The position numbers were made by a program, and so were the translations under genes. This document shows positions 25,701 through 49,700 of a stretch of 64,000 bases of DNA, one piece after another (the stretch's first letter is position 1; each line of letters begins with the position of its first letter). Where the stretch lies: assembly GCA_030141605.1 (NCBI GenBank), contig JAQGDQ010000090.1, positions 310,001 to 374,000 of the forward strand, read 5' to 3'. Below the pieces are notes generated by a model. It was not told the origin of the DNA, did no database searches, and saw only the letters and a program-made list of their open reading frames with translations. This DNA is from Tubiluchus corallicola (Eukaryota; Animalia; Priapulida).

Positions 25701-28700
25701 GAAAAATGTCAGTTTCTGTTCTTATTTGTTAATCATATTTTAGGTCCTCCGTATATTCGACCATTCAAAAACTTGACAATCGCTGTTGGGAAGAACGCAA
25801 CGATCAAGTGTCATGTTAGCGGTTATCCGATTGCTTCCGTTTGGTGGAAAAAAGGTAAACAAAGATGTTTTTTTGAGAACCATTTTATGTGTTGCATATT
25901 TTTAAACATTTACATTTCTTGAATTTGTATCAGTTTATCATGTAAACATTTCATGAGCATTAGTCTCAGCTGATGATATATTCAATTTCTGTTGTGCATA
26001 TTTTGTGTGATGTTTATTCTTTAGTTTACCAAATTCTGACGTCTTTTTAGGAAATCGAAGACTTCCGGCTAAGCCTCATCAGCAGGTGATAGATGGTGGC
26101 AGGACTCTAGTGATTGACAATGCGCAGAAAAATCGTGACAATGGCGAGTATACATGTTTTGCTAGAAGTCCATCTGGAGATACAACTCAGAGGAGCATCA
26201 ACGTTGATGTCAAAGGTACCATTTAAGATCCTGTTGTTCATTAATTTTGACAATGTTGACTTTGATTTATGAGATACAAAAGGAATGCCAGATTCATTTA
26301 TCTGTTCACCTTGATTTTTGATTAAACCAGGTTTTTGAAATGTAATTTTACATATACATGATTTTTTAGTGTTGACACTCATGGAAAGTGCTCCATGTGT
26401 CATTCATTGCTAGATTATAAATTATAACGTTATCATTTTTTATAACATTTACTGAACTGTCTTTGAAGTGAAATTATAGAATTCGGGTATTTTAATCACA
26501 TATATTTGGATGAAAGGCCTTGGTATCATATGGCTGACTTTGAAACCAGCAAATGTTTTGCTGTGTAGGGTGGGTGGAGTGCATCTAGCCTTCTTTTACT
26601 GTTCCTAATTCTGTTATAAACAATCAAACCAAATCACCATCAAAGTACCATATGTCCAGTGTTTTAAGTGAAGTTTTTAGCTATTACTAGTCTCCAAATT
26701 TTGAAATAATCAGTAGAGTTTAAATGAAAATGCAAAAATATATTTCATTTCTGAAGCATAGTGATGCCTGTTGATCGATGCCATTCAGAAAGTTTACACT
26801 TTCCATCACTTTCTTCCTTAAACATAAAAATACATTATAAATTTAATTTTAACAAATTGTCTAATAATGTTAAATAGTTGTATCAGAAACTACTGTGTAC
26901 TAATTTTTGTATGTAATAATCTTTTTATTAGCATAGTTTTTATGTGTTTAAATGACTATAGAATAAATAATTTTTCTTCATGCATACCATACGTACTATT
27001 TCAACAAGTTCCCGGGTTTTGTTTTCAATGGAATATCTTCCATTGCAGTGCCACCCTCACTTAGCGCATTTCAGTTCCCCCGTTTGGTACTGGGAAAACG
27101 TGCTGGTGCTGTATGTATCGTGGATAGCGGAGACCCACCAATATATTTTCGGTGAGCCCTAAACTACTGGTCTCCCTGTGTTTTTTTGTACTGATATTGT
27201 GGTAAATTTCTTTCAGTTGCGCCATCCTTAGGGGACTTCATGTTTCCTAAAATTAAGGCAGGACAACGGGCTGCTGCAGTTTGCTTTGTTAATGAGGGTG
27301 ACCCACCTATAAACTTTCGGTGAGAACTCGCACATTGTTGTACTAATTTGTCACATTTTGCTTTGCAGTTCCACCCTCTATCGGCCGGTTTGAATTTGAA
27401 AAAATGAGAGTAGGTGCAAGAGCTGCTGCGGTGTGCTTTGTCAATTATGGTGATCCACCAATCATATTTCGGTGAGAATGTGACCTTAAAGTATTAACCT
27501 GAAATGTTTCATTTCAGTGCCACCATCTTTGGGACAGTTTAGTTTTGAAAGGATGCGTGTGGGTGACAGAGCAGCTGCAGTGTGCTTTGTGAACAGAGGT
27601 GACCCGCCCCTTTGGTTTCGGTGAGAAATATTGATATATTTGTTTTGCTGATTAATGGCATTTACTCATTTTAGCATCCCCGTCGGTCGGCCCTTTCGAG
27701 TTCCCTCAGATGCCGATCGGAAGCAGAGTTGCAGCCGTATGTTTCGTTGACAAGGGTGACCCACCGATTACATTTCGGTGAGAATTTCTCTTCTGCCCAC
27801 TTCTTAATTTGAGTTGTCAAGAATGCCTGATCTGAAGTGGTTTGTGCAGTTGCTTGGTGTAGTGGTTGCAAGTATTGTGTATGATCCCCCATTTCATGTG
27901 GTGCTTGTGCTTGGCTTTATAAAGAATTTTTTTATCTTATTTAGGAGAAGTAGCAGTGACGTTCTGTTTCATGCTGCCTTTAATGCAGTCTGTTTCGGAG
28001 CAGACAGACAATGTGTCATATCAAATGCTTTTGGATGATTTACACATTCATTTCTTTCAGTTCCGCCATCTATTGTACCATTTGAGTTTCCAAAGCTCGG
28101 ATTTGGAGAAAGGGCTGGAGCGGTGTGTTTAGTGAATCTTGGCGATCCGCCCATTACCTTTGGGTGAGGATTATTTTGAAAACTGATAGCTTATGTTTTT
28201 CAGTGCCACCAAAACTGAGGCCATTTTACTTTGATCGACTGAATGTTGGAGAAAGAGGCGGTGCTGTTTGTATTGTGAGCTTGGGTGACCCACCTATCAC
28301 TTTCCGGTGAGGATTTTAGCACTACGCAATGCTATTCTTCTGTGTGCGTGTGTGTGTGTGCGTGCGTGCGCTTGTTTGTGTATGTGTATATACACGTATA
28401 TGCACTTCCAGTTTTTCCAGTTTTTCCTTTTCTTGGTAATTAAAGTACACGAGGAATTTATTTTTTAGGTATCGAAAATTTACAACTGATGGAAACGTGC
28501 TTGCATGCGTCCATTCCTTGTTTTCTAGCATTGTTCGACACTTGTCATTAAATTGTATTGTCTTGTCTGCATTTTCAGTTGTCCCAGCTTTGCGTCCTTT
28601 TGCTTTCACAAGAGTTCAGGTTGGATCCAGGTCAGGAGTTGTTTGTATTGTAGAATTGGGCGATCCACCGATAAAGTTCCGGTGAGAAACTGTTAGCTGA

Positions 28701-31700
28701 ACAGAGCTGCTACTTTTAGTATTTAGTTAGCACGTGTGAATTGTGTACATGTTATGTGTCAGAACTGTGTGGCTCAGGAGCAGATTAATTCCGGAATGAG
28801 TACCTGCGGAGAACAGATCACCTATCTTTATTGCTAATTAATCTGCATTATTACTTTTTCATCATTTTCCAGGATTGAAGTTCGAGGATTTTACACATTT
28901 TGTTTGTAAAGCTCATTAATGCAGTGTGCTTTTAATTACAGAGGCACCAATGCTGACACTGTCATTCAGCTTTCCACGAGTGAGGTTACACAAACGAGCT
29001 GCTGCAGTTTGCCTTGTAACTGGTGGTGATCCGCCTATAACATTTCGGTGAGAAACTCTGCTAGGTGATTTAGACTAACAGTAAAACATGCTTTTCAGCG
29101 ATTCCCATTCTGCATCCATTTGAATTTCCGAAATTGATTCTTGGCGCCAGAGCTGGTGTTGTGTGTATTGTCGTGTTTGGCGATCCGCCCATAAAATTTC
29201 GGTGAGTTGGTTTAATATCGAAACCATGAATGTGATTTGATGTGAAGTGGATGTTTTTTGAATGTGTAATATTTGCCCAGTGTATTTGCAGCATTTCAGT
29301 ACTAATCTTTGCAGTTCACTTTTTTTCAGCAGTTACTCTTTTCATTGGTACTTTTGCTACAGTTTGTGTGATACCATTTTCAGAACCGCTGATGCTAACA
29401 CCCTTCTCATTTCCTCGAGTGAGGTTACACAAGCGAGCAGCCGCGGTCTGTCTAGTGACTGGCGGAGATCCGCCCATAACGTTCTGTGTAGGACAATAAC
29501 ATATTTTACAGAATGTGACAGTGTGTGCTGTAATTTTTCAGCTGCACCCAGAATAGTTCCATTTGACTTGCCAAGAACAGCAGCGGGCGATAGAGGTGGC
29601 ACTGTGTGCATTGTGAACAGTGGTGACCCACCAATTACATTTCGGTGAGAATGCTCTAACTAACTAACATTGATTTTGGAGTGTTTGTTGGAGTGCTTCC
29701 TTTTCTTGAGCGCTTATTTACGCATTTGCACTTTCTTTTTGTTTCTAGTTGGACTTTCAACAGTTTCATTTAAAAAGCTCATCAAAAACAACTAGATGTT
29801 TTTAGCAGGAATAACATCGAAAGTTGCTTATGGTAAGCCTTCTGTCCTTGTTCTGTAATGGACCCTGACAGCTTAGGCTACTATCATTATAAATTTCAAA
29901 TGTTTTACTTCAGCACCACCAGGACTGCTGCCGTTTGAGTTTCAAAGAGTTAATGCCGGAGACAGAGTTGGCACAGTGTGCATTGTTTTCAGTGGAGATC
30001 CTCCAATATCATTTCGGTGAGGAGTTGCTCAGAATTTCTGTTTTACCATTTTGCAGCTTCTCCGTTGATTGATACCTTTGCATTTTCAAGACGTAAGATT
30101 GGAGAGAGAGCATTTGTGGTATGCGGAGTGACAAATGGTGATCCGCCCATAACATTTCGGTGAGAGTTTGGTTTTAAACTCTTGTTTTGCATTTTTACAG
30201 CTTCTCCGGTGATTGATTCATTTGAGTTTTCGCAACTTAAAGTTGGGGAGAGAGCATTTGTTGTGTGTGGGGTGAAGAATGGTGACCCGCCAATAGCATT
30301 TCGGTGAGAACCTACTTTCTCAGTATTAATACCATTGATGAATCTTTTCAGCTCCGCCCACAATTGATGAATTTAGTTTTACACGGCGAACAATTGGTGA
30401 GCGAGCAGGCGTTGTGTGTATAGTGACAAGTGGTGACCCTCCTATCAGCTTTCGGTAGGCTTGCTATTATTGTGTTCTGTTGTGTTTGTGGAAAGTAGTG
30501 TTTCCATTCCTTGAACAGCCCTCTTTCATCTCCTTTTAGGTTCTTGGAAGTACAGCAGTAATTTGTACTTGATGGAGAACTGGAGTATCTGCAAAAGTTT
30601 CTTTACAATTTTATTTATTAGTAGAGACAGTACTCACTGACATGTTTTAATTCCAGTGCCTCCGGTTCTGGATAGCTTTGAATTCCCTCAAAGGACTCTT
30701 GGCGAAAGGGCATTTGTCGTTTGTGGTGTAGCCAAAGGTGATTCCCCAATAACATTTCGGTGAGCTGCGATATTATTGTAGCATTCCTAGGTGGGCTGCA
30801 TTGATGTATGTTTGTTAGTGCAGGTAACTTTTCTTTACTTTCAGTTCCCCCGTCTTTGGATCCGTTTGATTTTGCACAAAAAGTTGTCGGTGATAGGGCA
30901 GCCGTCGTTTGCTATGTAAACAGGGGTGACCCACCGATTCAGTTTCGGTGAGCACTGTTTTCCCATCTAACTTCTTTCTTGTGCCACCAAAACAGTGTGC
31001 ATTTTTTTCAGAACCACCGGTAGTAGACAAGTTTGTGTTTCCAAGAAGACGAGTGGGCAGCCGTGCTTTTGTTGTGTGTGGTGTAGAAAAGGGTGACCCG
31101 CCGATACAATTTCGGTGAGCTCCAGTTTAATGTTAGAGCTGGTGTGACTGTGATGATGCCTCTCCTTACTTTTTTCTAGTCCCGCCTGTACTGGAACCAT
31201 TTGACTTTCTCAGGAGGACTGTCGGTGACAGAGCTGCAGTCGTCTGTTTTGTGAACAAGGGAGATCAACCGATAACATTTCGGTGAGCTCCATACGATGA
31301 ACTCTTTTTCATGCAATTTGACATTTTTATTCATAGAGTCACCCACGTTGGACGCATTTCAATTTCCAAGGCGAAAAATTGGCCAACGTGCATTCGTAGT
31401 GTGTGGAGTGGCGAGTGGTGACCCTCCGATATCATTTCGGTGAGACATTTATGGTCAGTTTTGCCACATGCACTAACCATTGGTTTCTTACAGCAGGTGA
31501 CACATCTTGCGAGAAATTGCAAGCTGTACGAAATATTTAAATGAATAATGCTTATTTTACAGCCCCTCCTGTTTTGGACTCATTTGAGTTTGCAAGGAAA
31601 CGGATTGGTTCTAGAGCAGCAGCGGTGTGTTATGTAGACATTGGTGATCCACCTATTAAATTTCGGTGAGGCATTATGAACTATGTGAACATTAATTACC

Positions 31701-34700
31701 TTAAGCAGAATCTCTGTTGTAATTTTTCAGTGGCACCAAATTTGGCACCATTTCAGTTTCTACGTGTGAAGGTTGGCAAAAGATCTTTTACCGTGTGTGG
31801 TGTGGACAGCGGTGATCCACCTATTCATTTTCGGTGAGGACAAAAAAGTTTAAAGAGCATATCTGCATTAATAACATTATTCTGTTTACAGCTCCTCCTT
31901 TGGTCGACCCATTTCAATTTCTTAGGCGTCGCATTGGAGAAAGAGCTGCTACGGTTTGCTTTGTCAGTAACGGAGACCCGCCAATTACATTTCGGTGAGA
32001 CTTACTGCTTGCTATAAGCAATATTTGGGTGAAAACTGGAACTATTTTCCTTTCAGAGCCTCCAAATCTAAACCCATTTGATTTTCCGAGACTCAAGATC
32101 GGGAAAAGGGCATTCGCTGTGTGCGGAGTTGACAGCGGTGATCCCCCGATAGCATTTCGGTGAGAGTTGATTTGATATTTGAACAGAATCTAAATTCAAA
32201 TAATTATTTCTTGTTTGTTTCAGTTGCAATATTGAATGCGTGTTCTCTTTTTTGGCTTGCAGTAGAAAGTGTCAAAACTGTTGACAGCTTTGGAGTGTTT
32301 TATGTGTGTACTACCTTTCCTGTTTTGTGAATGTCATTAAAATAATTATGGCTTGTGTTTTAGATGTGGTGTCGACAGAAGCTGTCTGGCTAAGTGAATA
32401 CCTTTACATTTTCTGTCCTCAAACACCCATGTCAGTATCAAGTACTGATTAATGGTAGTATTTGCACTTTGTTACAGTTGCTCCCGTGTTAGAACCATTT
32501 AGCTTTCCAAGATCTGATGTCGGGTCTAGAGCTTTTGCTGTCTGTGGAGTTGACAGAGGTGATCCGCCATTAGTGTTTAGGTAATTTTTTTGCTCTGAAA
32601 TCATGTTTTTTCACTCTGCATCATTTCAGTTCCTCCTGCTCTTGGATCATTTTCATTTCTAAAGTTGAAGATTGGAGAAAGGGCCTTCACCGTGTGTGGA
32701 GTTACCAAGGGGGACCCACCAATATCTTTTCGGTGAGATTAATTGATCTGTGTCATTAACTAATGTTTTCATTTCAGATCTGAGAACTCGAGTTTATTTT
32801 TTGCCGGTTGGTGGATTTTACATCATGTGGAGTGCTGAGCGTTTGCACCCCCCACTCCCCATTTCTGCTTATTATTTTGAATTAAGTGACGAATAAAATT
32901 ATTTCAGCTGCTCCATCCTTAAGCCCATTCGAATTTCCTAAGCTGAAGGTTCATCAGAGAGCATTTACTGTATGTGGAGTGCTGAGTGGTGATCCACCCA
33001 TTTCTTTTCGGTGAGCTTTTTTGCAAGAAATGCTAATAGGCTTTATAGCTTAGTCATGTCTCACGATGCGTTGTGCGTTTCAGAAACACCATTCATTCGC
33101 CCATTCGAATTTGGAAAGCTGAAAGTGCATCAGAGAGCATTTGCCACGTGTGGAGTAATAAGCGATGATCCTCCTGTTTCTTTTCGGTGAGCGGCTTTGC
33201 GAGCTGTATTTCAGTTAGCCATATTAACATTCTTCATTATTTCAGAATCACCCTCCCTTCGCCCCTTTGAGTTTGGAAAATTGAAAATTCACCAGAGGGC
33301 ATTTGCAGTATGTGGTGTGTTGAGTGGTGATCCGCCGATAATCTTTCGGTGAGCCTTTTAGTGCTTTCTTAGTCTTTTGTTATTGATTTAAATTTGTTTA
33401 TTTCAGAAACTCCTGTTCTTCGACCATTTGAATTCGGAAGTTTGACAGTTTATGAAAGAGCCTTTGCCGTCTGTGGAGTTTTACGTGGAGACCCACCGAT
33501 CACATTTCGGTGGGTGTCTTGTTCATTTGTCTAATTCGTTCTTTGCATTTCAGCACCACCTTCCTTGTTGCCCTTTGAACTGCCTAGAATTAGAGCTGGT
33601 CAGAGGACATTTGCTGTTTGTGGTGTCCATGATGGGGATCCACCAATAACTTTTCGGTGAGGTCCTTAATGTGACATAGCAAAATTAACAAAGGTGTTCA
33701 TTTCAGACTCTCCGTTGTTGGTGCCGTTTTCATTTCCAAAGGTGGAGAGCGGCCGGCGAGCTTTCGCTGTTTGCGGTGTTGAAAGAGGGGATCCACCGAT
33801 AAGCTTTCGGTGAGATCCGGCTTGATTTATCGATTTTTGTCTTCTTTCAGTGCCATCCGTCCTCTGCCCTTTTTTGTGTGCTAGTGTGTGTGTGTGTGTG
33901 CAGATTAGTGTGAATGAAGAGTTTGTTTAATTTGTTGTGCCTAATTTATCAAACTAGTTAAGTTTAGCAACAGTGAATTGACATTCTTATCTGAGCATGG
34001 ATATGTAGCTGCTAATGTCAATTTAATTTATTGTAAAAAATCTTTTCACTAAGACTAACAAACAATCATGCTATTGTCATTTCATGTTGTTAAACTTCAC
34101 TGCTTATTGATTTGTGGATTTTGCATTGATGAATTTGTGTAAATGTTTATTTTCTTGGCTATGTAACCCAGAAAACACTAATTTTTAGTAGCGATTTGTC
34201 TTATGAAACGGAAGAAACAATATTAATTTTGCTCCGTTTGTCATTAATGAATGTCAATTTGATTTCCAAGAGTGGAAGTCTATTTTAATTAGCCAGTATT
34301 GTAATTAATACCATAATAGTAAAACTGGATCCTTAGTATTTTCTGGGTACTATAAAATGTGCAAGCAGCTGTCATTATAAATTCATTATTTCCTTTATTA
34401 AATGTAAACATCTTTGTCGATACTTACACAGTTCTACGAAACTGTAACAAAAATATCAGTTTTTCTATATGCTCTCATTTGTGAACTTCCTTGCTGAAGT
34501 TGAGTTTATAATGAAATCTGTCTGTTTTTTAGAGTGTTTGTAAGCGTTATGCACATCTGAATTTTAACTATTGGTAAGCGTTATGCAACTGACTTTAAGC
34601 ACAAAACCAGATTTAATGCTAACATTCACAAATGAGGTGAACAGTTGGTTATTTAGGTGTGTTTCTGTGCTTGCTTTCATTTGTTGTTCGGGGATGCATG

Positions 34701-37700
34701 TGTAGTATGCCCAAAATTCGCTCCAGGTCAGTATTTTATTCCACCGAGTAGTGTACTGTGTACTTGTTTACCAGGCAAATTTCGTTTAGAATTTCTTATG
34801 ATGAAGCCACATTTTTCACCTCAGCCAACTACACCTGCATTGCCGAGAACCTTGCTGCCACTGCCAGTTGCACTTTGGTTGGGACTGGCTGATGTTGGCG
34901 GGGCTGTTGTGCATTTCTTCAGCTGGTTGAAAGACGGCCATCCTGTTTCGCCAAGTCTTGGTGTTTGAATTGTTGTCCCCGTAGAATTTGCCTCTGCACT
35001 TCAAGTGTGAGCTCACACCACAGTGGCATCTACATATGTACCGGCAAAATTTTTGTGATTTTGTGAAAGTTTTGACAAATTTGGCATGGCTCTCAAATTT
35101 CATATCATATTTTGTACCTCTTACCCTTTGTAGGTAGTTCTAATGACAGTAAGTTTAAAGCATTAAGAACGATAACTAATATGGCACATTATATTAAAAA
35201 GTATACTATGTAAAAGGTATGGAATTAAAAGACATTATCTAAAAGGTGTGGCTGTAAAAGTCATATTTGTTCTATCACAGGTAAGCTACGATACATTACT
35301 CCTGAATTAAAAAAGAAGAAATTGCATCCATCTGCACCTCTAGTTGATGCATTCATTGCATTGTGCAGATAAGAATAGTCCTTTTTTCCTAACTAATAAA
35401 AGTGTAACGATCCTATACAAGCCTTACTTATGCTGAAATCACTTTACATATAAATTATGTGGTTGCAGGCAGCAGCTATACATGCATTTCCTAAAAGAAC
35501 AAGAAACATTTGATCCCTTTCTGATTGGTGACAAACTGCTTCCTTTTTGGCAGATGGCTGAAAGATGATTTATCAATAATTGCTAACTTTGGCCCGTACA
35601 TTGTTCCCGACAAGTTCTCGTCAACGTTGGTGATTCCTGTTGTAGAATCACAGCATGCTGGAAACTACACTTGCATTGCTGAAAACCATGTGGGCACTGC
35701 TGCCTATGGAACTGTCCTCGAAGTTGATGGTAAGCAAACAGCAAAACCGTAATGTCACCACAGGATGGCTGTTTTCAAATGGCTTTCGCTTCGTTTATTT
35801 ATTGTAAACTTATTTCTTAAGCTGGTTCAAAGACCACCATGAGTTAAGTGTGACTGTGGGAAGGGAAATTATGGAGAATCGTGTTGCTTCAGCTTTAACC
35901 ATAATGTCAGTGAAATCCATGGACAGTGGAAACTACACCTGCGCAGCTAAAAATGAAGTTGGTCAAGCTTCGTATTCGGCTTCGTTAATTGTAGATGGTG
36001 AGAAACTTTTTGCTTTCATTATGTGGAGGTGGAAACTGTCATTAACTTGGCCTTCTTAGGTACAACAGGATGGCTGATTTCAATCAAATAGCTGGTTGCC
36101 TTTTGTAATTGCTTATTCGAACATTTTAAGCTGGCTTAAGAATGGTAGAGAACTAACCGTCACTCCTGGAAGGCAAATCATGGAAAATCTTGTTGCATCA
36201 ACTTTGACTATAATGTCTGTGAACTCGCTTGACACAGGCAATTACACTTGCCAAGCTGAAAATGAAGTTGGTCAGACATCTTACTCTGCAGCGCTGATTG
36301 TTAATGGTGAGGTTTACTAATTTTTTGCTGTTTTACAAATAGCTAAGGAATGTTTGTGAGTTTGTGGCCCTGATTGGGCATACCTTGGCAAAACAGGATG
36401 GACGTCAGGATCTGGTAAAAACTCAAGTTATTAAATAAACACAATTTCTTGTTTGTAAGATGGTTGAAAGATGGTAAGCCTCTTCCTAAACGTGTTGCTG
36501 GTGAAGTGATGGAAGGAAGGTTCGCTTCAACTCTAGTTATACCAAGAGTGAATGCTTCCCACAGTGGTAACTATGCTTCAGAATTTGGCAGGCTCTGCGA
36601 GCTATTCTGCAAAGCTTATTATCGACAGTAAGTAAAGCTGTATACTTGCGTTTGTTAGCACAGGTTCTAGGAGCAGAAATGTAAATTTTGGCAAAGAATT
36701 ACCATTCTTTGAACACCTGCCATTTTTAAGTCTTATAACAGAGGTAGTCACTGTTGTCATTTTGACCATATGCCAATCTAGCACCTGGAATATGTAATGC
36801 AGGAACCATGAGGCGATTTTTAGAAGTGCCAATAAATTATTAAGAATCTCAAAGTCAAGGTAAGTTTAATGGCATTTAGAATCCGTTCACGCAGAATAGA
36901 CTTGGTCACAGGATGGCATCTTATTTTGTAAAATCGTTAAGTCATAAATGCAAATTTCACGTAGTTGGCTCAAAGACGGAATGGCTATTCCCAAAAATCT
37001 GAAGGTGAAGGAATTTTTCGGAGATGGAGTGGCTTCGACGCTGGTCATTCAGAATGTCAATGCTAACCACGCTGGGCACTACATGTGCATTGCTGAGAAT
37101 AATGTAGCAGCTGCAATGTTCATGGCTGAACTGATAGTAGACGGTAAGCTTGCTTTTGTTAAAAAACTTCCTTACATGTTAATGAGTGAGAAAACACCAA
37201 GAGTGGCAACAGGAGGCCACTTTGGCATCTTCCTTGAAGAAATGTTTGGAGTTGTGCTAAGTATTTTTGTTATTATTATTATTATTTAGTTGGCTGAAGG
37301 ATGAAAAAGTCATTCCTACGAATTTACAAGTAGAACACTATATGAATGGCGGTGTCGCATCTGCACTTGTTGTACAGAGTGTGAAAGTTATCCACACTGG
37401 AAATTACACCTGTGTTGCCGAAAATGCAGTTGGAACCATGAAATATACTGCAAGCCTCGTAGTTGATGGTAAATATTTCAAAATGGAATGAAAATTTGGC
37501 AAATAGGATGGTCGCATTCGTATTCTAATACAAGCAGTAGGGTCTGTAAAGTCTTTTGTATCTGGTGTTTTAGTTGGTTAAAAGATGGTAGTACCATAAA
37601 TGACAGTCTGAAGGTGGAGCGTTACGTGGAGAGTGGAGTAGCGTCCACACTTGTAATACGGAGAGTAAAGGCCAGTCACTCCGGAAATTACACTTGCATT

Positions 37701-40700
37701 GCTAAGAATGCTGTTGCAATGGCCAGATTTGTAGCTGAACTTGTCGTTAATGGTGAGTTTAAATGCTTATCAGCAAACATCAAGATTTGGTGTGCAGAAT
37801 GCAAGTGTGGCACCAAACTCATTTAAACTGGCATAAAATGCTTATTCTTTGTTTGCGTAGCTGGTTTAAGGATGGCTTTCCAATTCCCGATAACTTGGAA
37901 GCTGGCCAGCATGGCGGGGATGGTGTCGCCTCTATGCTTGTGATTCAGAGTGTGACACGGGAACATTCTGGCAACTACACATGTTCTGCTAAAAATGTCG
38001 TGTCTGAGGCTAGTTACACTGCTGAATTAATTGTGAATGGTAAGGTTTTAATTATATTTGCAATCATTACCAAACCTTGGCGAATAGGATTACCTCTGGA
38101 AAAACTCCAGCAGTCATTCTGAGCAAGTCATAATCCAGCCACAATAATTTACTTGCTTAGATGGTTGAAAGATGGATTTGCAATGCCTGATGCATTAAAA
38201 GTGGTACACCATGTTGAACAAGGGGTAGCTTCAATGCTTGTCATTCAGAGCGTAACGCGGGAACATTCCGGAAACTATACATGCACTGCAAAAAATGCTG
38301 CTGCAACGAGTAGTTATACGGCGGAGTTAATAGTCAATGGTATGTTTTTTTAAGTTGTTCATTTTCCAAGCACCAGAACTTGGCAAACAGGGGTGTGCTA
38401 GTGGCGAGCTGTTGTAGTTAAAATATGTCATTTACTTAGATGGTACAAAGATGGCAGTGTAATACCTGCTCATTTAAAAGTGGGGCAGCATACTGTGGAA
38501 GGAGTAGCATCAAATCTTGTGATTCAAAGTGTGGTGGGTGAACACACTGGAAATTATACGTGCACTGCTGAGAATGATGTATCATTTGCTAGTTATACTG
38601 CAGAATTGATAGTAAACGGTGAGTTGGTTTTTATGTTTTATCGATACCAGTTCTTGGCAAACAGGATTATGCTGGCCGTTGAATAAACTTCTTGGACAAA
38701 TTGATTTATAAATTCTTGTTTGCTCATTAGATGGTTCAAAGATGGATCTGTAATACCAGATATGTTAAAGGTGGGACGACATACAGAAGAAGGGGTGGCC
38801 TCCACTCTTGTAATTCAAAGTGTAACACAGAAACACTCAGGAAATTATACGTGTTTTGCTAAAAATGCTGTGTCAGCGGTTAATTATACTGCTGAGTTAA
38901 TAGTGAATGGTAAGTCCTTTTCAGTGCCTCATCTACATCTTTTTATCAGTTCGAGTAACTTCTTTTCATTGAAGTTCTTGGAAAACAGGATGGAATGACT
39001 GTCTGCTGCTTGACCAGCTGAAAGTTGTTTATTTTTGAGCTTCGTTGACAGCCATCTTTTTATAGCTGGTTAAAAGATGGAGATGCTATTCGGTTTGATC
39101 CAGATCAGGATATAGAAGTAGTTCCTAGTCGTTATGCTTCAACACTTGTAGTGCCGGAAGTAGCTAGTCATCACACGGGAAATTATACATGCATTGCCCA
39201 AAACAAGGCTGGCATCGCTACATATACTGCAGAATTGATTGTCGATGGTATGTCATTTGGTGGTATGAGCTCATACAGCTGTGTAGGTCTTCTCTTTCAA
39301 CTTGTGCTGAATGTAGATTCAGTGAGGTGATTATTGCTGTGTTTAACAATTCTAGTTGGCAAAAGGATAGTGTGCCAATACCATTGAACTTTGGCATTGA
39401 ACATCAGGCATTTCCAAATGGGTTCGCTTCTACCTTAGTTATTCCTTTTGTCAAAGAACATCATGTTGGGAATTATACTTGTATTGCTGAAAACAGTGCG
39501 GGGAACACCCGATTTACAGCTCTTCTCAAGGTTGACGGTAAGCTTTTAAATAAGTGTTGAGGCAAAGTCTACGTAGACAACTTAAAAACTCTTAAACCGA
39601 TGACCTACTTGTGATTTTTATGAGTACTGTGGTGTTGTTAGCTGGCTGAAAGATGGTGCTACTGTTGAAAATGGCACGGGAATACATCACGAGGTTGTTT
39701 CCTATGGATTTGCCTCAACATTGGTTATTCCTCGAGTGCAGGCGCGTCACCGTGGTGACTACATGTGCATTGCAGAGAATGCTGCCGGAATTGCTTTGTT
39801 CCAAGCATCTTTAATTGTAAATGGTAGGAAAGTAAAGTACTGTTTTTAGCATAGAATCGCTTGTCACATTTTTTGATATAGATCTGTGTACCAGTGCATT
39901 TGATGCTTTTATTGCAGTGATTAGTTTCCATGAAATTATGATTTTGCTTCACCATTCCAAAAGCAGGTAGCTGTTATGTACAAATTATACTTTCATCTAA
40001 GAGCACTGCAGATTCATTTTAGTCCACCACTGGCTAGATTAGTGTTTAAAGGTCCGGTGTTTGAAGGTATGCCAAATGAGTTGCACTTACCTTTGGTGTG
40101 AGTTGATGCTTGGTCCTTAGTTCTTTAAAACACCTTATCGACACACAAACCTCAAAGCTTGGCGATATGACTATTTTTCAAACGATCATACAGTGAATTA
40201 TATGAAAACACTTTGGCAGATGGCTTAAAAATTCAAATGCGGTGCCATTAGAGAAAGGTATTGAGGTGTACACGGGTGGTGGCTTTGCTTCAACTTTAGT
40301 GATTCCTGTTGTTACGGCTGCTCACAGTGGAAACTACACTTGTATCGCAGAGAATGGTGCCTCCTACACCAATTATACGGCAACTCTCACTGTTGATGGT
40401 AAGCCATATGGAAGACTTGCTTGGCAATGGTTTTTGTGACATAGTGATCAGTTTCATTCCAATCTTTGACTTATTTCTGTACTTCTATACTATAATTCTT
40501 TGACTATATTAAGAGAAACATTGCTTAGACAAAAAATGCCATTTATAAGTGCAGAATTTGTCTTCTGGTTTTTAGGATTAGTTTAGGCCCACAGGCTTGC
40601 AGTTGTTAGTGCCAATGCTTCTTAGAACTCAGACCCAAATGCTTGTTGAAAGTCGACATGCTCCTTTTGTCACCAATTCATTTCTGCTAAGTATTTTTCT

Positions 40701-43700
40701 ATAATTGCTTGTGGCTTCTTGAAAGGGCGAGTATCGAAAAGGTAAGTGACATATGTTGAGATTAGTTACAATTGCAAATGTTAGTCAAGTACACCTCTGT
40801 CACAGTGGACATGGACTGTGTGTGAGCTGATATTTGGATCTTCTTTGCCTTTTGTATATGGCGTCTTGAAATCACTCGCTGACAAAGATTCATTCAGATA
40901 TGTGTGCATTTCTTAATATTCCTGAGAAAAATTTTCGGTAATTTTCGTAGTTGGTTTAAGAACTCAATCGAAGTACAGACAAGCAGAGATATTGAAGTCT
41001 ACAAGGACGGGGGATTTGCATCTACACTCGTGATACCTGTTGTTGCAGTACGACATACTGGCAATTATACTTGTGTAGCTGAGAATGATGTATCTCACAC
41101 CAATTACACTGCAACACTTACAGTTGATGGTAAGCTATGTAAAATTTACCATTTATCATGGCCTCCCTCTTCTGCCATGTAATGTTGAATAGTTTTGCAA
41201 AATATGAGAAACAAAACAAAATGCCAGTGGGTGTTAGTTTTTGCTACGTTGATTGTCGATTATTTATGATACAGTACTTCTAGCTTCCAATCATTGTTTA
41301 AGGTAAGCTGTGTGAGCACACACTCAGAAAGCTGCTTTAACTTTTATGGTCACATCATGTTTGCCTTCATTGGGCTCGCAGTCTTTCAGCCATCTTTCGA
41401 AGAACTTCAAAAGCCTTATTAAATGCATTCAGGTTTTAAAGTACGTTCTTGTAATAGTTGGAAAAAGGACGGTGCAACACTTCTGACCGAAAACATTGAT
41501 GGTGTTTACATTGATGACCTGCGGGAATTCGCTTCGACACTAGTAATACCCAAAGTTAAACGAGTGCATGCTGGAAATTACAGCTGCATTGCCAAGAATC
41601 CAGCTGGACATGCCTCTTTTGTTTCTCAGCTAGCAGTGGATGGTAAGAATCTTTAATTCAGCACCAGGACTTGCAGAATACAAAAGCAGGATGGCCCTTT
41701 GAAAAATTTCACATTTGACGACGTTGTATTTCGCCAATGTTGTATTGTAGATGGTTAAAGGATGGCATGGAGTTGAGACCAAATTCAGATCTGGAGATTT
41801 CTCCTACACGTTATGCATCCACGCTTATTATTGCTAGCGTTAGACCTCTTCATGCTGGCAATTACACTTGCATAGCTCGAAATTCTGCCTTTGCAACTAG
41901 TTTCACGTCCACACTAATCGTCGATGGTAAGTTGTTCTTAGGCTCATGTGTAGTTGCCACTGTGTGGTGGATGGTCGAAACTTTCCTTTCCAGCTTTAAC
42001 ATTTGCTTCCTACCATAACTCATGCTGTTGTTACTAGTTGGTTCAAAGATGAAATGCATTTGACAAATGTGCAGTCACACTAATCGTTGATGGTAAGTTG
42101 TTCTTAGGCTCATGTGTAGTTGCCACTGTGTGGTGGATGGTCGAAACTTTCCTTTCCAGCTTTAAGATTTGCTTCCTACCATAACTCATGCTGTTGTTAC
42201 TAGTTGGTTCAAAGATGAAATGCATTTGACAAAAGTGCAGTCACACGTTGAAATAACTTCAACAAGGTTTGCTTCGATGTTAGTCATTCCTCGAGTGACG
42301 GCCAACGACAGTGCAATCTATACGTGTGTAGCATCCAACTCTGCATCCAATGCTTCGTTTTCCAGTCACCTTGCTGTTGACGGTACGTGTTTGATGATTA
42401 TGTCGATCATGTCGATTATGTCGATCATGTTATCGCTCGATTAGAAAACCAGATGCAAATTTTCTTTGTTGTTTGGTTTGTTTCAATGCTTGCAAGCGGC
42501 CAGTGTGTCCGTGGTGTCCAGTGCTTATTTGCAAAGACTAATTTTGTTAGCACTTAATTAATTACTGAGTTCGAGCTGTCATAATATTTCTGGAGAGGTT
42601 ATTTACTTGGATATGGCGATGCTGGTTACTACACGGATTTCTATATTTTCCAGTTTGCTTTAAGATGTCCACTAGGGGTGAGCATTCTCTAACGGAAAGT
42701 GAATTCGAATCTAATCGAATTCGAATCGAGATAAAAAGATTTTCGAACAAGTTTTTGAACCACCTGTAAAAATTTGTCTTACAAAGATCATGCATATTAC
42801 TCGATTATGTTCTACAGTACAACCACCAATAACTTGTTTAAAAACTGTGCACAGAGATCACAGCTAAATAATGCTAACTCCATGATGTTGCTATCGTTTT
42901 AATGATAAAGAACGTATGTGATTGAAGTGCTGAATTATTCGAATCTGTAGTTTTAGGTTCAAACTAAAAAACTTTCAAATCGAATTCGTACGTTCAATGC
43001 TCACCCCTAACGTTCACGTAGTTATGTAATGAGTTTGTCACAGTAGTCTGTTGTCTGTCATGAACAGATAAACTAGATTCCTTGCACACGTCATAAAAAG
43101 AGCTTTTCCTTGGCTTAGACTTATCAACATCATTCTGTACTTTTTTGTAAACATTCTGTAAGCATTTTCCACTATATAAGCAAGCAGTAAAATTTTCAGA
43201 GCCTTGTGCTTAGTTGAAGTGACGTCTTTTGGTCTTTTAATATCATTTGATACCACTATGTGTGGTGTGAGCTCTGCACTTCGCACAGTCCTTCCACTCT
43301 GTCATCTTCTCATACTGAGAAACTTTCCAAATTTTCATTATTGTTACTAGTTGGTTAAAAGATGGATCTGAAATCAGTTCCGATTCAGGCGTGCTGCTGC
43401 TTGTTCCGAATAAAGCAGCTTCGATGATAGTCATTGAGACTGTAAAACCAGATCACCATGGCAACTACACATGCATTGCTGAAAATGATGTGGCAATGAC
43501 TAGTTATACTAGTCAGCTTTTTGTTAATGGTATGTATAAATGGCAGAAAATTCAGCTGCTCCAGTGGTATATTTCTTGCATTGTACTGAGAAAACATATT
43601 GAATTTCAGTTGGTTAAAAGAACGTAAATTCATTGCTCCTAACTTGCGTGTAGAAGTTGTAAAACATAAAGCCGCATCTATGCTTGTTATTGGTTCTGTT

Positions 43701-46700
43701 ACTTCAAGCCACAGTGGAACGTACACTTGCCTTGCCTCTAATGCAGCAGGTCATGCCAGTCTGTCTGCTGAGTTAGTGGTGGATGGTATGTATTCATCAT
43801 CAACCTGCACCACATGTTTTCTTTATCATGTTTCTGCCATATTTCACCCAGCTGAATCATATTTTTGTGATTTTTGGCAACTAGTCTCAATAGTTTGATT
43901 TTTACCATGCAGTTGGACTAAAGATGGCAGATCGGTACCATCTCACTTGGGTGTGGAAATGTTTACTCCAAGTGAAGTTGCGTCAATGATCGTCATCAAG
44001 TCGGTTAGCGCCAATCATTCCGGTTCTTACTCTTGCACGGCTGAAAATGCAGCTGGTAAAATAAGCTTTAGTGCTGCCCTTATTGTGAATGGTAAGTTAC
44101 ATTCTTTGTTAACATTCAAACTAAATCCCTCCAGCAAGGTTTTCGTCTTTCATGCAGGTATATCAAAACATGTAGGTCCATAATCAACCTTGCCGTTAAG
44201 ATGATTTAATTTGTAAGAGTAGTGCAACTCAAGAATCAGTTGTTAAGTAACAGCTCTAGCCCAAGACTTGGTGAAATAATTCGTGGCATCTAGCTGATTG
44301 GTGAAGTACCAGAAGTTGTTGTTTTACCATCGTTTTGCTGTAACAAGTCTATTACGTAGGTGGCTGAAAGATAGGCAACATATTCCACTTAACTTGAATG
44401 TAGAGATTCACAACTCCAGCGTTGTAGCTTCTATGATAGTTATACAAAGCGTTTCGTCTTTTCATGCTGGGAATTATACATGCATTGCAGAGAATTCTGC
44501 TTCTCATACAGAATATACATCACAACTTCTAGTTGATGGTAAGCAGCATTATGCTGTCATTTGCAAGACATTTGTTATTACCTTTTTATTGATATTTGAT
44601 TATCAAACACCTTTGCCCGATTGCTTTAAGTTTGACTGCAATAATGAGGATTCAGATAGCATGTGTATCATTTATTTTCATCAAAAATGGAAAAGGTGAG
44701 TCGTTTATTTTTTTCATTTTTGTTTGCAATAAAGAAACAGACATTTGTAAACCTAGTAAAACTAGAGGTAAAGCAAATTTTCTTTTATACCTTGCAAGTC
44801 TAATTTTCCAAGACTTGGCAGACGGATGGTCATTTTTCCTTGAATGCCTTATGGCTGTTATCTATGTGTGTTTGTCTCTTGATAGCTGGCTTAAAGATGG
44901 CAAACCCATCGTTGATGACAAGTCAATCGAAAGTGTAGAAACTGACGTTTCGTCGATGTTGCTAGTACGGCGAGTGCGTCCTTATCATAGCGGCATTTAT
45001 ACATGTGTGGCCAGCAATAATGCCGCAGATACCAACTTTTCTGCTGAACTTGAAGTTGATGGTAAATTGCCTTCAGAAATTAGTCTCGACACTCATTTCA
45101 GCACTTTCTATAATAATAAGTCACATGGTTAGTGAGGTGGGAATGTGCTTGGATGCTGATCTTTTTACTGTGAGCCTTAAGGGCGCTTAGAACTTGATAG
45201 CATTCAGTTTCCTGTGTTTCTTAATTGCTGGAGTTGCCTTGGTAGGTTGATCCGTTAGAGTTATGTTGGCTGTTTCATCAGTTAAGATTGAATTATGTGT
45301 TCACGTTTTTGATTTCATTTGGTGATACAGTAATTTCTTGACTCATTTAGAAATCTTAATTTTTTGACAGTTTAGTTGTCTTTGAGTGTTTTGCAAAGTA
45401 GACAAATTAGTGACATGTATGGATTTTAAAACAAGCTACAATACAGTTTTGAAAGCATCTCTGACTTGAAGATTTGTGCTCCAAGACTTTGCAGGCCATT
45501 GGTAATTCTTTCCATGAATCCGCTCATTCATTTAATTCTACTGAATTTATCTCTCAATACATGGCTGAAGGCTGGAAACCTTCTTACTTCTAACACCTCT
45601 CATCTGCGCATTTTAAATCGTGAAATAAAACACATTTGATTATCCTGAAAAAGGCTCATTCTCCAAGACTTGGCAGACCACTAGCCATCTATCCTAGAAA
45701 CTTTTCACTTCTGTAATTCTCCTGAATTTATCGCCTAATTGCTGGCTGATAAATGGCAAACTTCCCTTCACCAGCATGTCTGTTGAGCGCATGGAAAGTG
45801 ATGTTTCATCTATGCTGCTAGTACGACAAGTGCGTAATTACCATAGTGGAAATTATACGTGCGTAACAAGCAATGGTGCTGCAGACATTTCACTGCTGAA
45901 CTTATAGTTAATAGTAAGTCTAAATTATGGAATGCATTTGTCAGTTGTGAGGGGAGCTTGGTCGTTTTTCATAGTAATATGGTGAGTAGTATATTGTTAT
46001 TTACAAATTGAAAGACAGTCAGCTTTTCACAAGTAGAAGTCAAAAATTGTAAATCAGTTTACTTATAGCCATTTACCTACCTATTTTTTAAACTTGAAAC
46101 GGGCATGCAACCTTGCAAATTATCTGTCTTTCTTTCAACCAGCAAAGCTTGTTGGCTTTGTCTAGTGTCCCTTTAAAAGTTCTGAACTTTTGCAGCTGGT
46201 ACAAAGATAGTCAACATATAGAAGCTGGTGAAGGCATTAAAATGATTGACGATGAATTTTCTTCAACCCTCGTCATTCGTCATATAACTGCTAGTCATTC
46301 CGGCTTTTATACATGTTCTGCCAGTAATCCCGTGTCTGTGTCTACATTTTCTGCAAGACTAGTTGTCGACGGTATGTTTTCACAATGGAAGTTACATGTG
46401 GTTCACACAAACTTTTTTATGTTCATTGTTTCTACATTTCCTTCATGTATCAAATCATCTAAATACTTATTTTAGAGTTAACAAATCAAATATCTTCTGA
46501 ATCGTTACTAAGTGTTTAGCAGAGGTGTGTAACCGTTTTTTCATCAGCTTACCTTCCTGAACAAAAGTGCACTGCAAAGGCCGTCTTTTAACCAGCTGCT
46601 TTTTCTGCATCTAGAACTTTCCGAAAGGTCATTTACATGTAATTATAGTTGGACCAAAAATGGCAAAGGTTTGGATATGATAAATGTTAAGATAATGGAA

Positions 46701-49700
46701 GATGAATTTGCTTCAACGTTAATCATTCGTGTAGTCAATGCGCAACATGGCGGGAATTACACATGCACGGCTGCCAATGCCGTCGCAGCTGTAAACTACA
46801 CAGCACATCTGACTGTATATGGTAATTATATTTTTAATTTCATTCACAAGACTGTCTTTCAACCAGCGAGTTGTAATCATGACAATTTTTCCACGTATAA
46901 TTCATTATCAACCTTTATAACAGTTGGCTCAAGAATGGCAGTCCTATCTCTTTGGAGGCCGTTATTGAATCAGCAACTGGTTTTGCCTCAACTCTTGTCA
47001 TCGCTTCTGTTAGTTCTCAACATAGTGGCAACTACACTTGCATTGCCGAAAATGCCGGTGGTAGTACAAACTACACTGCAAAATTGAAAGTAGATAGTAA
47101 GATTTTCCAAATTTGTATTTTGGAAGTTAGTGCAATGTATTGTGACATGACATTGCTATGAAAAGTGCTCGTCAGTCAGCTGAAGCTTTGCTTTGTTAGT
47201 TATAAACACTAGCAACAACTGCTGCTCCCAGTTTACCACTTGTGATGCAATCTTTCAACCAGTAAGTCAGCTTACCAATTGTGTTAGCAAAATAATTACC
47301 AAATTATTGACCAAACAAATTTAGCTTTTTACTTAAGTGAATACATAACAAAATTTATTAACAGTTGGTTAAAGGATCATACCACTGTTCCCTTGGATGT
47401 CATTGTTGCATCTGCTACACCATTCACTTCTACTCTTGCCATCAGTGCCGTGAGTCTTAAACACAGTGGCAATTACACCTGTTTTGCTGAAAATGCTGGC
47501 GGTAGCACAAACCACACCGCTGAGTTAAAAGTAGACGGTAAGGAATTTTTGTAAATAACTTAACTTGTTTGTTTTTCCTTACTTTTTGAGCTACATTGGA
47601 TTAGTAATGAGAGTGGATGGCTTAGAGGATTAATATCTTTAATAACGAGGTAGGTTCTGGTCCACTTCATCTTTTAAAGGACTGCTGACAGTCCTTGTCC
47701 TTCAATGTCTTTAGTGGGCAATGCCACTGATGCTAGATTATGCTTTGTAGTGTGTGCTGAACTGTATAAAAAATCATCATGGTACAACAACCATCAAAAC
47801 ATCAAGCACTGGGTGATTGCTTCTTTCAGCCAGCAATTTAACTATTTGTTTGTGCGAAAGTTTTTAGTTAGAATTCACCCAAAACACATTTATTAATAGT
47901 TGGTTGAAGGATAGTGCTTCAGTCGCTGCTGATGTGTTTGTCGTTTCGGCTACACCATTTGCTTCAACTCTAGTCATTCCTGCTGTTAGATTTGAACATA
48001 GTGGAAACTATACCTGCACTGCTGAAAATGCTGGTGGGAGTGCAAGTTACACTGCTAAATTGAAAGTAGATGGTAAGACTTTGCTGTTAGAATTGTAAAC
48101 CGACTTTTTATCATCTAGTACTGATTTGTACAGCCAGGTGCTTGTAATTCCCATGCAGCATCCACTGGAAATATTTATAAATGGCCAGAAGAACAGCCAT
48201 TACTAGAATTCAAATGTAAGGGCAAAGAAACAGCATTTTAGTAGTAAAATGATCAGACCTTGTTGCTAAGCCAGGTATGACAGAATTTCTTACAGTAGTG
48301 GTCCCTTCTCCAAATGCCTTTCAACCACTGAAGAAAAATTTGAAAAGTAACCATGTTAATCATAAATGCCACAGCCAAATTTTAATGTCATAGCTGGCTA
48401 AAGAATAATGGTGCCATTGATGCAGATGCCGTCATTGATCAATTGTCCTCAGGCTTTGCTTCAACACTTGTCATCAAAAGTGTTAGTTCTCTTCATGGTG
48501 GCACTTACAGTTGTATTGCAGAAAATTCTGCCGGTAGTGCGACTTATGGCACTGAGCTGAAAGTTGATGGTAAGTTGCTACACAGGTAACTTCAAGTGGG
48601 GTGGAAAACAGTTTGGTGCCGTCAACTGAGTCATTATCTCACGTAGAAAGTCTTTCAACCAGCACTGTAATTTACTAGCTAGAAAAGAAAGTATAAATTT
48701 AAAATGTTACGTAGTTGGTGGAGAAATAAAGGCGGCATTCCTGCAGATGCTGTTGTTGATACGTCAGCTACGGGTTTTGCATCAATGCTTGTCATCAAGA
48801 TTGCTAGCTTTCATCATAGTGGCAGTTATACTTGTATTGCTGAAAATTCTGCTGGTAGTGCGAGCTATACAGCTGAGCTGCAAGTTGATGGTAAGTTGGA
48901 GTTGCTCCTGTACTCATGAGTAGTAGGGTATTCAAGGAAAGGTGATTTATGTTGGCTCTCGTCTCCTTAACTCAGAAAGTCTTTCAACCAGCACCGTGTA
49001 ACTTAGGTTATCTAAAATACTACTAGAGAACACAAAGCATCAACATTTTTCATAGTTGGCTGAGGAACAATAATACAATTCCTGTGGATGCTGTCGTGGA
49101 AACTTCTGGCACAGGATTTGCATCAACCCTTGTTATCACAACTGTCGATTTTCGACATAGTGGCAATTATACCTGTATTGCTGAGAATGCTGGTGGTAGC
49201 ACATACTACATTGCTGAGCTCTTAGTAGATGGTAAGATATCTTTGCAATTTGAAGGGGCAGTTGAATTAAGGCAGTGGTTTGTCTATGTAGACCTCTCTC
49301 TTCTGTTGTACTTTCAGCTGGATTTTTGTTGGATTTACAGTCAGTGTTGTTAGTATTCAGCAATTTAGTTAGTATCTGAAATATCTTTTCCCAGAAGAAA
49401 ATTGGTTTGCTTTTCTAGGTTATTAAGGCTACCATCTTACCTTTTTTTGCTGCTTTGTTTTGTGTTTCTGGCAGTGGCAGATAGACCCAAAATGCCTTTT
49501 TCCTTGTCTTTTGCAACTGTTCTGTGGAATACTTAACTTTTAGGTGGTTAAAAAATGGCATTCGCGTTGTCTCAAATTCCAATATTAGAGTGTATCTGCA
49601 AGATGATTTTGCATCGACATTTGTCATAAGAGAAGTTCAGCAAAACAACAGTGGCAATTACACATGTATTGCGCAGAACTTAGCTGGAGCTACAGATTAC

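Follow-up and report, generated by a model that had tools for sequence, protein, structure and literature searches.

In the available parts of the literature, the exon 6 cluster of Dscam1 is modelled with one docking site (dock) upstream and a selector before each exon (PMC6071210, PMC12962786), and the dock of the exon 9 cluster is placed downstream of its cluster (PMC6071210). In Strigamia, the corresponding accounts give 2-5 copies of the whole Ig7 (PMC5465998, PMC4244043). Selectors can lie partly inside exons (PMC8042237) and intronic elements can pair with exons (PMC12962786); no exon-derived dock is reported in the portions of these two papers that could be consulted. Here we describe a Dscam-type gene on contig JAQGDQ010000090.1 of Tubiluchus corallicola (assembly GCA_030141605.1), within positions 310,001 to 374,000 of the forward strand (the window, 64,000 nt, from whose first letter all positions below are counted). 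Its Ig7 is encoded by two arrays of half-exons, A and B. With good confidence, the segment at 34912-35040, in the intron between the arrays, is a dead exon for the C-terminal half of Ig7 that is complementary to sequence upstream of most B exons and that likely acts as an RNA dock of the Dscam exon 6 type, picking one B exon per transcript.

In common with pancrustacean Dscam1 exon 6, as far as the published accounts consulted describe it, the locus has one dock upstream of a tandem array, complementary selectors, weak variable acceptors and competing pairings (PMC6071210, PMC12962786). It differs in having as its dock a dead member of the same array, one that includes a 3' splice site and whose sub-sites take up ~130 nt. 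Moreover, exon 6 encodes the N-half of Ig3 and follows a constitutive exon, whereas the B array encodes the C-half of Ig7 and its upstream partner is a 33-exon array, with no locus-control-type fold found. Diversity resides in Ig7, as in the Dscam1 exon 9 cluster, which encodes the whole Ig7, and in the Ig7 duplications of Strigamia (PMC5465998, PMC4244043, both seen in part); unlike in either, Ig7 is split here into two separately arrayed half-exons, and Ig2 and Ig3 are single. The features on which the argument turns are the following.

27049-33809, + strand: A array, 33 exons of 103-106 nt encoding the N-terminal half of Ig7, 32 of them with a GT donor.
35554-51470, + strand: B array, 42 copies of an exon encoding the C-terminal half of Ig7.
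34923-35043, + strand: dead B exon (Ig7 C-terminal half), from nhmmer and three-frame translation.
34912-34968, + strand: core dock, comprising the pyrimidine tract, the AG at 34921-34922, and the first 14 codons and stop of the dead B exon.

With lengths of 173-185 nt and like phases, the B copies form a tandem array of the kind found in Dscam-type dock-selector systems. An open frame is present in 38 of the 42, B4, B19, B26 and B27 being broken, and the B exons are only ~38-55% identical in protein to one reference exon. Ig7 is encoded by the A and then the B array in series, and the 32 x 38 intact exons would allow up to 1,216 combinations, supposing free A-B pairing. As read from the sequence, A-exon ends and B-exon starts are both in phase 2; therefore A-to-B joins are in frame, and A-to-A or B-to-B joins are shifted. 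The B acceptors are weak (mean score 1.0, versus 10.1 for constitutive exons) and the A acceptors strong, while the donors are weak in the A array (mean 3.3) and strong in the B array (11.4). The start of B26 was placed ~40 nt too early, which affects its distances, own-acceptor and acceptor-score values. Acceptors end in TAG in 29/42 B exons and in CAG in 30/33 A exons. A recent tandem duplication of intron plus exon start occupies 41927-42203, with B19 truncated, B20 intact and their selectors identical. The A-B intron, which holds the dead B exon, is 1.7 kb long. Its strongest acceptor, at 33851-33880, lies 41 nt past the last A donor and is followed by VPSVLCPFL; this segment appears to be the defunct beginning of a further, 34th A exon.

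The exonic origin of the dock is evident from a profile search: built from the nucleotide sequences of all 38 intact B exons, the profile matches 34915-35043 (nhmmer, E = 3.8e-16). Positions 34912-34922 read catttcttcag and exon-like sequence begins at 34923, as proposed in an earlier interpretation made from the letters alone (hereafter the sequence-only reading), which took the dock to be the pyrimidine tract, AG and start of a dead B exon. The translation runs WLKDGHPVSPSLGV up to a TGA stop at 34966-34968. Past the stop, the same frame gives IVVPVEFASAL to ~35001, where a 7-nt deletion, the first indel, intervenes, and the exon goes on in another frame to HSGIYIC; its last ~45 nt and native donor are missing. 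Homology to the live exons combined with these disabling lesions identifies a pseudo-exon. The sequence-only reading also had the frame intact across the pairing region and decaying right after it. The stop (34966) is indeed at the region's edge, but the frame remains readable to ~35001. In five of six segments, dead-to-live and live-to-live identities are alike (0.69/0.66, 0.36/0.36, 0.35/0.37, 0.57/0.61 and 0.54/0.49), so the exon does not degrade abruptly where pairing stops; only in the last segment does identity fall, to 0.52 versus 0.69. The 14-codon open frame alone is weak evidence. These 14 codons are ranked 2/41 by resemblance to the Ig7 segment of human DSCAM and again 2/41 against 339 outgroup Ig7-type segments taken from fetched proteins, which suggests an old copy held fixed. 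A fragment of another such exon lies just upstream.

34824-34871, + strand: second dead B exon, 3' fragment (NYTCIAEN...; nhmmer E = 3.3e-8).

To locate complementarity to the 42 introns upstream of B exons, perfect k-mer complements were counted across 22000-56000 in 50-nt bins, with 15 shuffles as control. In 23/42 introns a 9-mer is perfectly complementary to the bin at 34920, compared with a shuffle mean of 0.7 and a shuffle maximum anywhere of 9. At k = 10 the count is 18/42 against a shuffle maximum of 5. The next-best real bin at k = 9 reaches 12 and covers the start of a paralogous exon. The first ~55 nt of the dead B exon are thus the single hub of complementarity for the B introns. 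With permissive pairing scores that admit G-U pairs, the dock could not be told apart from the G-rich background; hence the tests rest on perfect k-mers and on duplex and helix energies with controls.

Duplex energies, calculated for the 40/42 introns of sufficient length, point the same way. The best selector duplex with the dock averages -31.5 kcal/mol, versus -20.0 kcal/mol with a shuffled dock, and is better in 36/40 cases (P = 1e-9). Together with the 9-mer counts, this makes the dock a common element complementary to the selectors of most variable B exons. Helices of -24 kcal/mol or below form with the core in 21/42 introns and with the distal dead exon (34972-35041) in 7/42, namely those of B13-B16 and B19-B21; it is this distal part that, according to the sequence-only reading, should simply have decayed. 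At the same threshold, 41/45 control bins give none and 4 give one, the 15 shuffles give 0-1, and like segments of 13 B exons give 0-3. Consistent with competing pairings, 34/42 introns have a helix of -16 kcal/mol or below inside 34912-34965 (chance, ~2-7 per 10-nt bin). Pairing there is absent for B1, B14, B16, B21 and B36, whose helices lie elsewhere.

The selectors mostly lie 45-110 nt before the B acceptor AG, and neighbouring exons use common sub-sites. B2-B11 pair mostly with 34930-34967; B13-B21 add 34980-35038; B28-B35 use mostly 34920-34940; and B37-B39 reach back to 34912-34918. Tandem duplication of units made up of intron and exon would produce such sharing, following the model described in the accessible text of PMC6071210. 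The sequence-only reading had named three selectors as reaching into the intronic catttcttcag, and all three do so: that of B38 perfectly, and 49787-49811 and 48315-48337 with one bulge or gap each. Individual elements are listed below.

50186-50200, + strand: B38 selector, a perfect 15/15 complement of 34912-34926 that spans the dead acceptor.
46579-46598, + strand: B29 selector, forming the strongest single helix (-41.4 kcal/mol) with 34920-34939.
40091-40168, + strand: B15 two-arm selector, whose arms pair with 35001-35023 and 34945-34967, near one diagonal (1-nt offset).
35000-35023, + strand: second docking sub-site, in the distal dead exon, with partners in the introns before B13, B15, B16, B17 and B21.
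34980-35038, + strand: EFAS and HSGIY coding remnants, with partners in the B14 and B19/B20 introns.
34688-34712, + strand: B1-complementary element, with partners at 35475-35491 (62 nt before B1) and in the GNYTC coding motif of many B exons.

Helices at the second sub-site range from -26 to -31.5 kcal/mol, and its five partner arms favour the dead exon over every live exon. The B14 and B19 arms, on the other hand, fit live exons equally (B14, -31.8 kcal/mol dead versus -33.1 best live; B19, -36.9 versus -37.3). With these sub-sites the dock appears larger than the sequence-only reading had it, spanning ~130 nt. A palindrome, gtgtgagctcacac, at 35006-35019 in the distal sub-site could allow self-folding. 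Two further partners lie upstream of the core: 34855-34867, in the second dead B exon, is the best partner of 49468-49480, 63 nt before B36 (helix -30.3 kcal/mol), and the B1 arm pairs with 34690-34706 (helix -29.0 kcal/mol). When the A-B intron was sampled as 25-mers at 12-nt steps, 34688-34712 paired best with B exons (mean -23.2 versus a background of -13.1, sd 2.8), and it is a candidate B1-specific dock or balancer-like element. Like the balancer pairings (Ubs/Dbs) of Dscam1 exon 6, as described in the consulted part of PMC12962786, it is intronic and complementary to a motif in variable exons; unlike them, it lies upstream of the dock instead of between dock and first exon. The broken copies B4, B26 and B27 (36460, 45561, 45741) keep clear selectors. 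The five live exons most similar to the dead B exon include B40 and B42.

Sequence conservation could be assessed in a diverged sample, run X5, through one contig of depth 5.7 that spans 34812-35137. It has 6 gap letters and 29 substitutions, of which 21 are listed and the other 8 are assumed to lie near the contig ends. No substitution falls in 34890-34972, and the longest unchanged run is 83 nt (P = 0.005). The sequence-only reading had predicted a conserved pairing region beside a drifting remainder, and this contrast is found, with 0/54 substitutions in the dock versus 6/75 in the rest of the dead exon (Fisher P = 0.035, one low-depth contig). Relative to the listed flanks (21/210), the dock is likewise conserved above intron background (P = 0.007, one contig of one sample). 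Farther along, 34999-35028 is free of substitutions, which is not significant alone, and with the listed changes the energies of the seven helices in the distal exon move by +2.4 to -5.4 kcal/mol. The central proposal of the sequence-only reading, that a duplicated exon was recycled as a regulatory hub, agrees with the B-exon origin of the element, with its position as hub for the B selectors (23/42 at k = 9) and with a core conserved above its flanks. As judged from the sequence, the claim that 34912-35040 is an exapted B exon stands, and an exon-derived dock of the Dscam exon 6 type is well supported.

What the dock does in splicing is deduced by analogy with Dscam1 exon 6. On that analogy, one selector at a time would occupy the core dock, and the exons in between would be looped out. 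The pairing would bring the weak acceptor of the chosen B exon near the upstream intron and the donor of the A exon in use, and B-to-B or A-to-A joins would shift the frame and be removed by nonsense-mediated decay (NMD). The sequence-only reading had the chosen exon looped next to the upstream branch region, whose branch point might be borrowed in this way. As to origin, an early B copy may have lost its coding role while RNA pairing held its sequence fixed; intron-plus-exon units carrying an antisense arm would then have been duplicated in tandem.

Decoy or poison exons are non-coding exon-like elements with splice-site motifs inside a regulated intron. The dead B exon resembles them as an exon-like element in such a position; here, base-pairing potential is the demonstrated property. 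It could be a dock and a working poison exon at once: in the unpaired state an A exon would be joined to 34923, exit would occur through a donor at 35148 or 35280, and the stop-containing message would go to NMD, selector pairing blocking this fail-safe route. The putative sites are as follows.

34889-34893, + strand: branch-point-like CTGAT (motif scan), ~30-34 nt before the dead acceptor.
35146-35154, + strand: donor-like site ACA/GTAAGT (cut after ACA), score 8.3.
35278-35286, + strand: donor-like site CAG/GTAAGC (cut after CAG), score 10.2.

A stop-containing poison exon starting at 34923 and closed by either donor is possible. The AG, tract and branch-like motif look intact and are unchanged or tolerated in X5, where C>T at 34889 keeps YTRAY. 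The two consensus donors, 226 and 358 nt downstream of the dead acceptor and thus within 360 nt of it, are among the rarest in 24.7 kb of sampled introns (CAG/GTAAGC is one of 2 MAGGTRAG, ACA/GTAAGT one of 7 GTRAGT), and the C>A at 35278 in run X3 keeps MAG/GTRAG; these donors were, however, noticed after the fact. The rank of the dead acceptor flips with the training set of the scoring model, one model placing it above 36/42 B acceptors and the other placing 35/42 B acceptors above it. The sequence-only reading expected pairing to mask this acceptor, but a helix of -16 kcal/mol or below covers both AG bases in 12/42 introns only, and most proximal selectors (B2-B11) form their best helices in 34930-34967, with the AG left free; on these predictions, AG masking is not a general function of the pairing. 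Conservation of the acceptor is, moreover, already accounted for by selectors such as those of B37 and B38, which pair across the AG. Most likely the acceptor was kept for such pairing and not as a required decoy, and the poison-exon proposal is, on balance, a tentative one. The AG/GTAAGC site within 35261-35286 can also be read either as an acceptor or as a strong donor. Recursive splicing at AG/GT 35281 was considered and set aside, as it would excise the dock before selection and X3 alters the -3 base.

The dock might instead have arisen and worked within a live first B exon that died only late, its exon-like distal part then reflecting a recent death. Over ~110 nt the dead exon is as near to live exons as those are to each other, and in X5 the distal part has changed almost as fast as intron, as such a history would predict. 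Against this, the stop and the deletion are common to X5, which is ~8-10% different nearby. Furthermore, the pairing of selectors from far-apart exons (B8, B10, B18, B41) extends as far as the stop codon or beyond it, and five selectors are specific for 35000-35023, just beyond the deletion. A late death is therefore unlikely.

Selectors could also be generic antisense maskers of B-exon starts, including their own, with the dead exon as one more paralogous target. The WLKDG start is common to live exons and a few selectors pair well there (best to -37), for the B14 and B19/B20 arms live coding motifs are as good a match as the dead exon, and 5/40 selectors form an own-start helix of -16 kcal/mol or below. 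Yet dock pairing beats the exon's own start in 38/40 selectors, other B-exon starts score no better than the shuffled dock (P = 0.49), and most pairing falls on 34935-34968, which differs in live exons; the proposal is already contradicted in silico and is very improbable. The suggestion in the sequence-only reading that selectors fold onto their own acceptor as a default off state was rejected: the own start is better than others in 17/40 (P = 0.43), and own-start pairing does not exceed that with the shuffled own start (-12.8 versus -12.0 kcal/mol, P = 0.33). Finally, a neutral origin of the complementarity, as the remnant of an ancient inverted duplication that was copied with the tandem units and plays no part in splicing, would explain why selector arms are collinear with the dead exon, as the two arms of B15 are on one diagonal, and why broken B4, B26 and B27 keep theirs, but it is extremely improbable given that B exons have diverged to the level stated above and the rest of the introns is unalignable, while the arms retain long helices at a steady distance from the acceptor and the core is unchanged in X5.

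Several observations weigh against the docking reading itself. The introns before B40 and B42 (23 nt and 38 nt; 50762-50784 and 51257-51294) contain no selector, nor do the exons preceding them, and the B22 intron has none above chance. For the A array no dock is found, since no hub in 22000-56000 rises above shuffles at k = 9 or 10, and coordination of the A and B choices is unexplained; at k = 8, bins 45620 and 26700 only equal the shuffle maximum. No stable structure connects the dock with the A donors (z of local folding, -1.5 to +0.4). The conservation test, with its single contig of depth 5.7, concerns a sample of unplaced relationship, and 8/29 substitutions are unlisted. In the same sample the distal dead exon, with 6/75 changes (8%), is indistinguishable from nearby intron (7/91, 20/193). 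Nor was a compensatory change between dock and selector seen across species, as no related locus was found and the X5 pieces listed exclude the selectors. Separately, a locus-control-type fold between A33 and the dock was sought and rejected, only a few 11-20-nt inverted repeats being present, and an Rfam search gave 3 matches, all far below gathering score.

19091-62210, + strand: host gene, from tblastn with known Dscams, PDB search and translations.

This is one animal Dscam gene, to whose exons known Dscams align in order (tblastn). It has the family layout (10 Ig + 6 FN3 + transmembrane), and its closest similarity is to Dscams. In its Dscam-type ectodomain, Ig1-Ig6 are single exons and Ig7 is split between the arrays; an FN2 half-exon is duplicated, and there are two transmembrane exons. 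Top PDB matches for Ig1 and the A exons are Dscams, the A exons matching Dscam Ig7 only. The Ig2 and Ig3 exons are unduplicated in the window, which sets the gene apart from the pancrustacean hypervariable Dscam1 arrays, and Ig1-Ig6 exons are present upstream of the arrays, which sets it apart from chelicerate sDscams. The FN2 half-exon occurs in two alternative copies (55532-56040), and the two transmembrane exons (61828-62210) are likewise alternative. In the 5' non-coding DNA, a tandem repeat of ~31-nt units (13050-13645) and a cca/cat microsatellite (2545-2760) are found.

Constitutive exons are ~33-55% identical to their best matches, arthropod and mollusc Dscams alike. Homology searches named no close relative; a metagenome scan with an A-exon alignment reduced 136 pattern matches to 1 locus, of unrelated bacterial-type sequence; and an Atlas search gave generic FN3 clusters only. 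In a quick tree of 35 rows the gene adjoins four mollusc sequences (Shimodaira-Hasegawa-like approximate likelihood ratio test 88, long branch). In a careful tree, of 14 of the quick-tree and other rows, it falls outside the rest and the two outgroups are not together; the set contains no deuterostome or other non-arthropod full-length Dscam. The gene falls within no arthropod group in the two trees and groups with insect/crustacean Dscam1 in neither, the branch being long and the root unstable. Its lineage may thus lie outside arthropods. The fullest version of this idea holds that a non-arthropod lineage independently evolved a hypervariable Dscam with Ig7 split into two combinatorial half-exon arrays (>1,000 variants) and with a dead array member serving as both a 130-nt multi-site dock and a fail-safe poison exon; taken as a whole, it is a long shot.

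No dead-exon-derived dock was found reported in the literature searched (including PMC5775551, PMC1397879, PMC11999971 and PMC10084454, consulted in part; supplements and subscription papers fell outside the search), and within the same bounds neither were split-Ig7 double arrays or exon arrays in a non-arthropod Dscam. As a real dock of known mechanism, the element is well supported by its sequence; its origin and the Dscam architecture around it are apparently undescribed. In line with the stem-loop duplication model, as far as the text consulted presents it, neighbouring exon blocks have one selector type, as if a hairpin arm had been duplicated with intron-plus-exon units; that model starts from an intronic hairpin, whereas the fixed arm here would be exonic in origin (PMC6071210).

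The origin of docking sites is an open question, for which the published model, in the part available, begins with an intronic hairpin (PMC6071210). Here that origin is traceable, as the dead exon is still recognizable and blocks of exons use different parts of it, making both history and mechanism testable. With its two serial half-Ig7 arrays, the host gene seems to have reached Dscam hypervariability by a path of its own, and may have done so outside arthropods, a setting from which the accessible parts of the reviews consulted report no such case. If that is true, a like RNA mechanism would have evolved again from different raw material.

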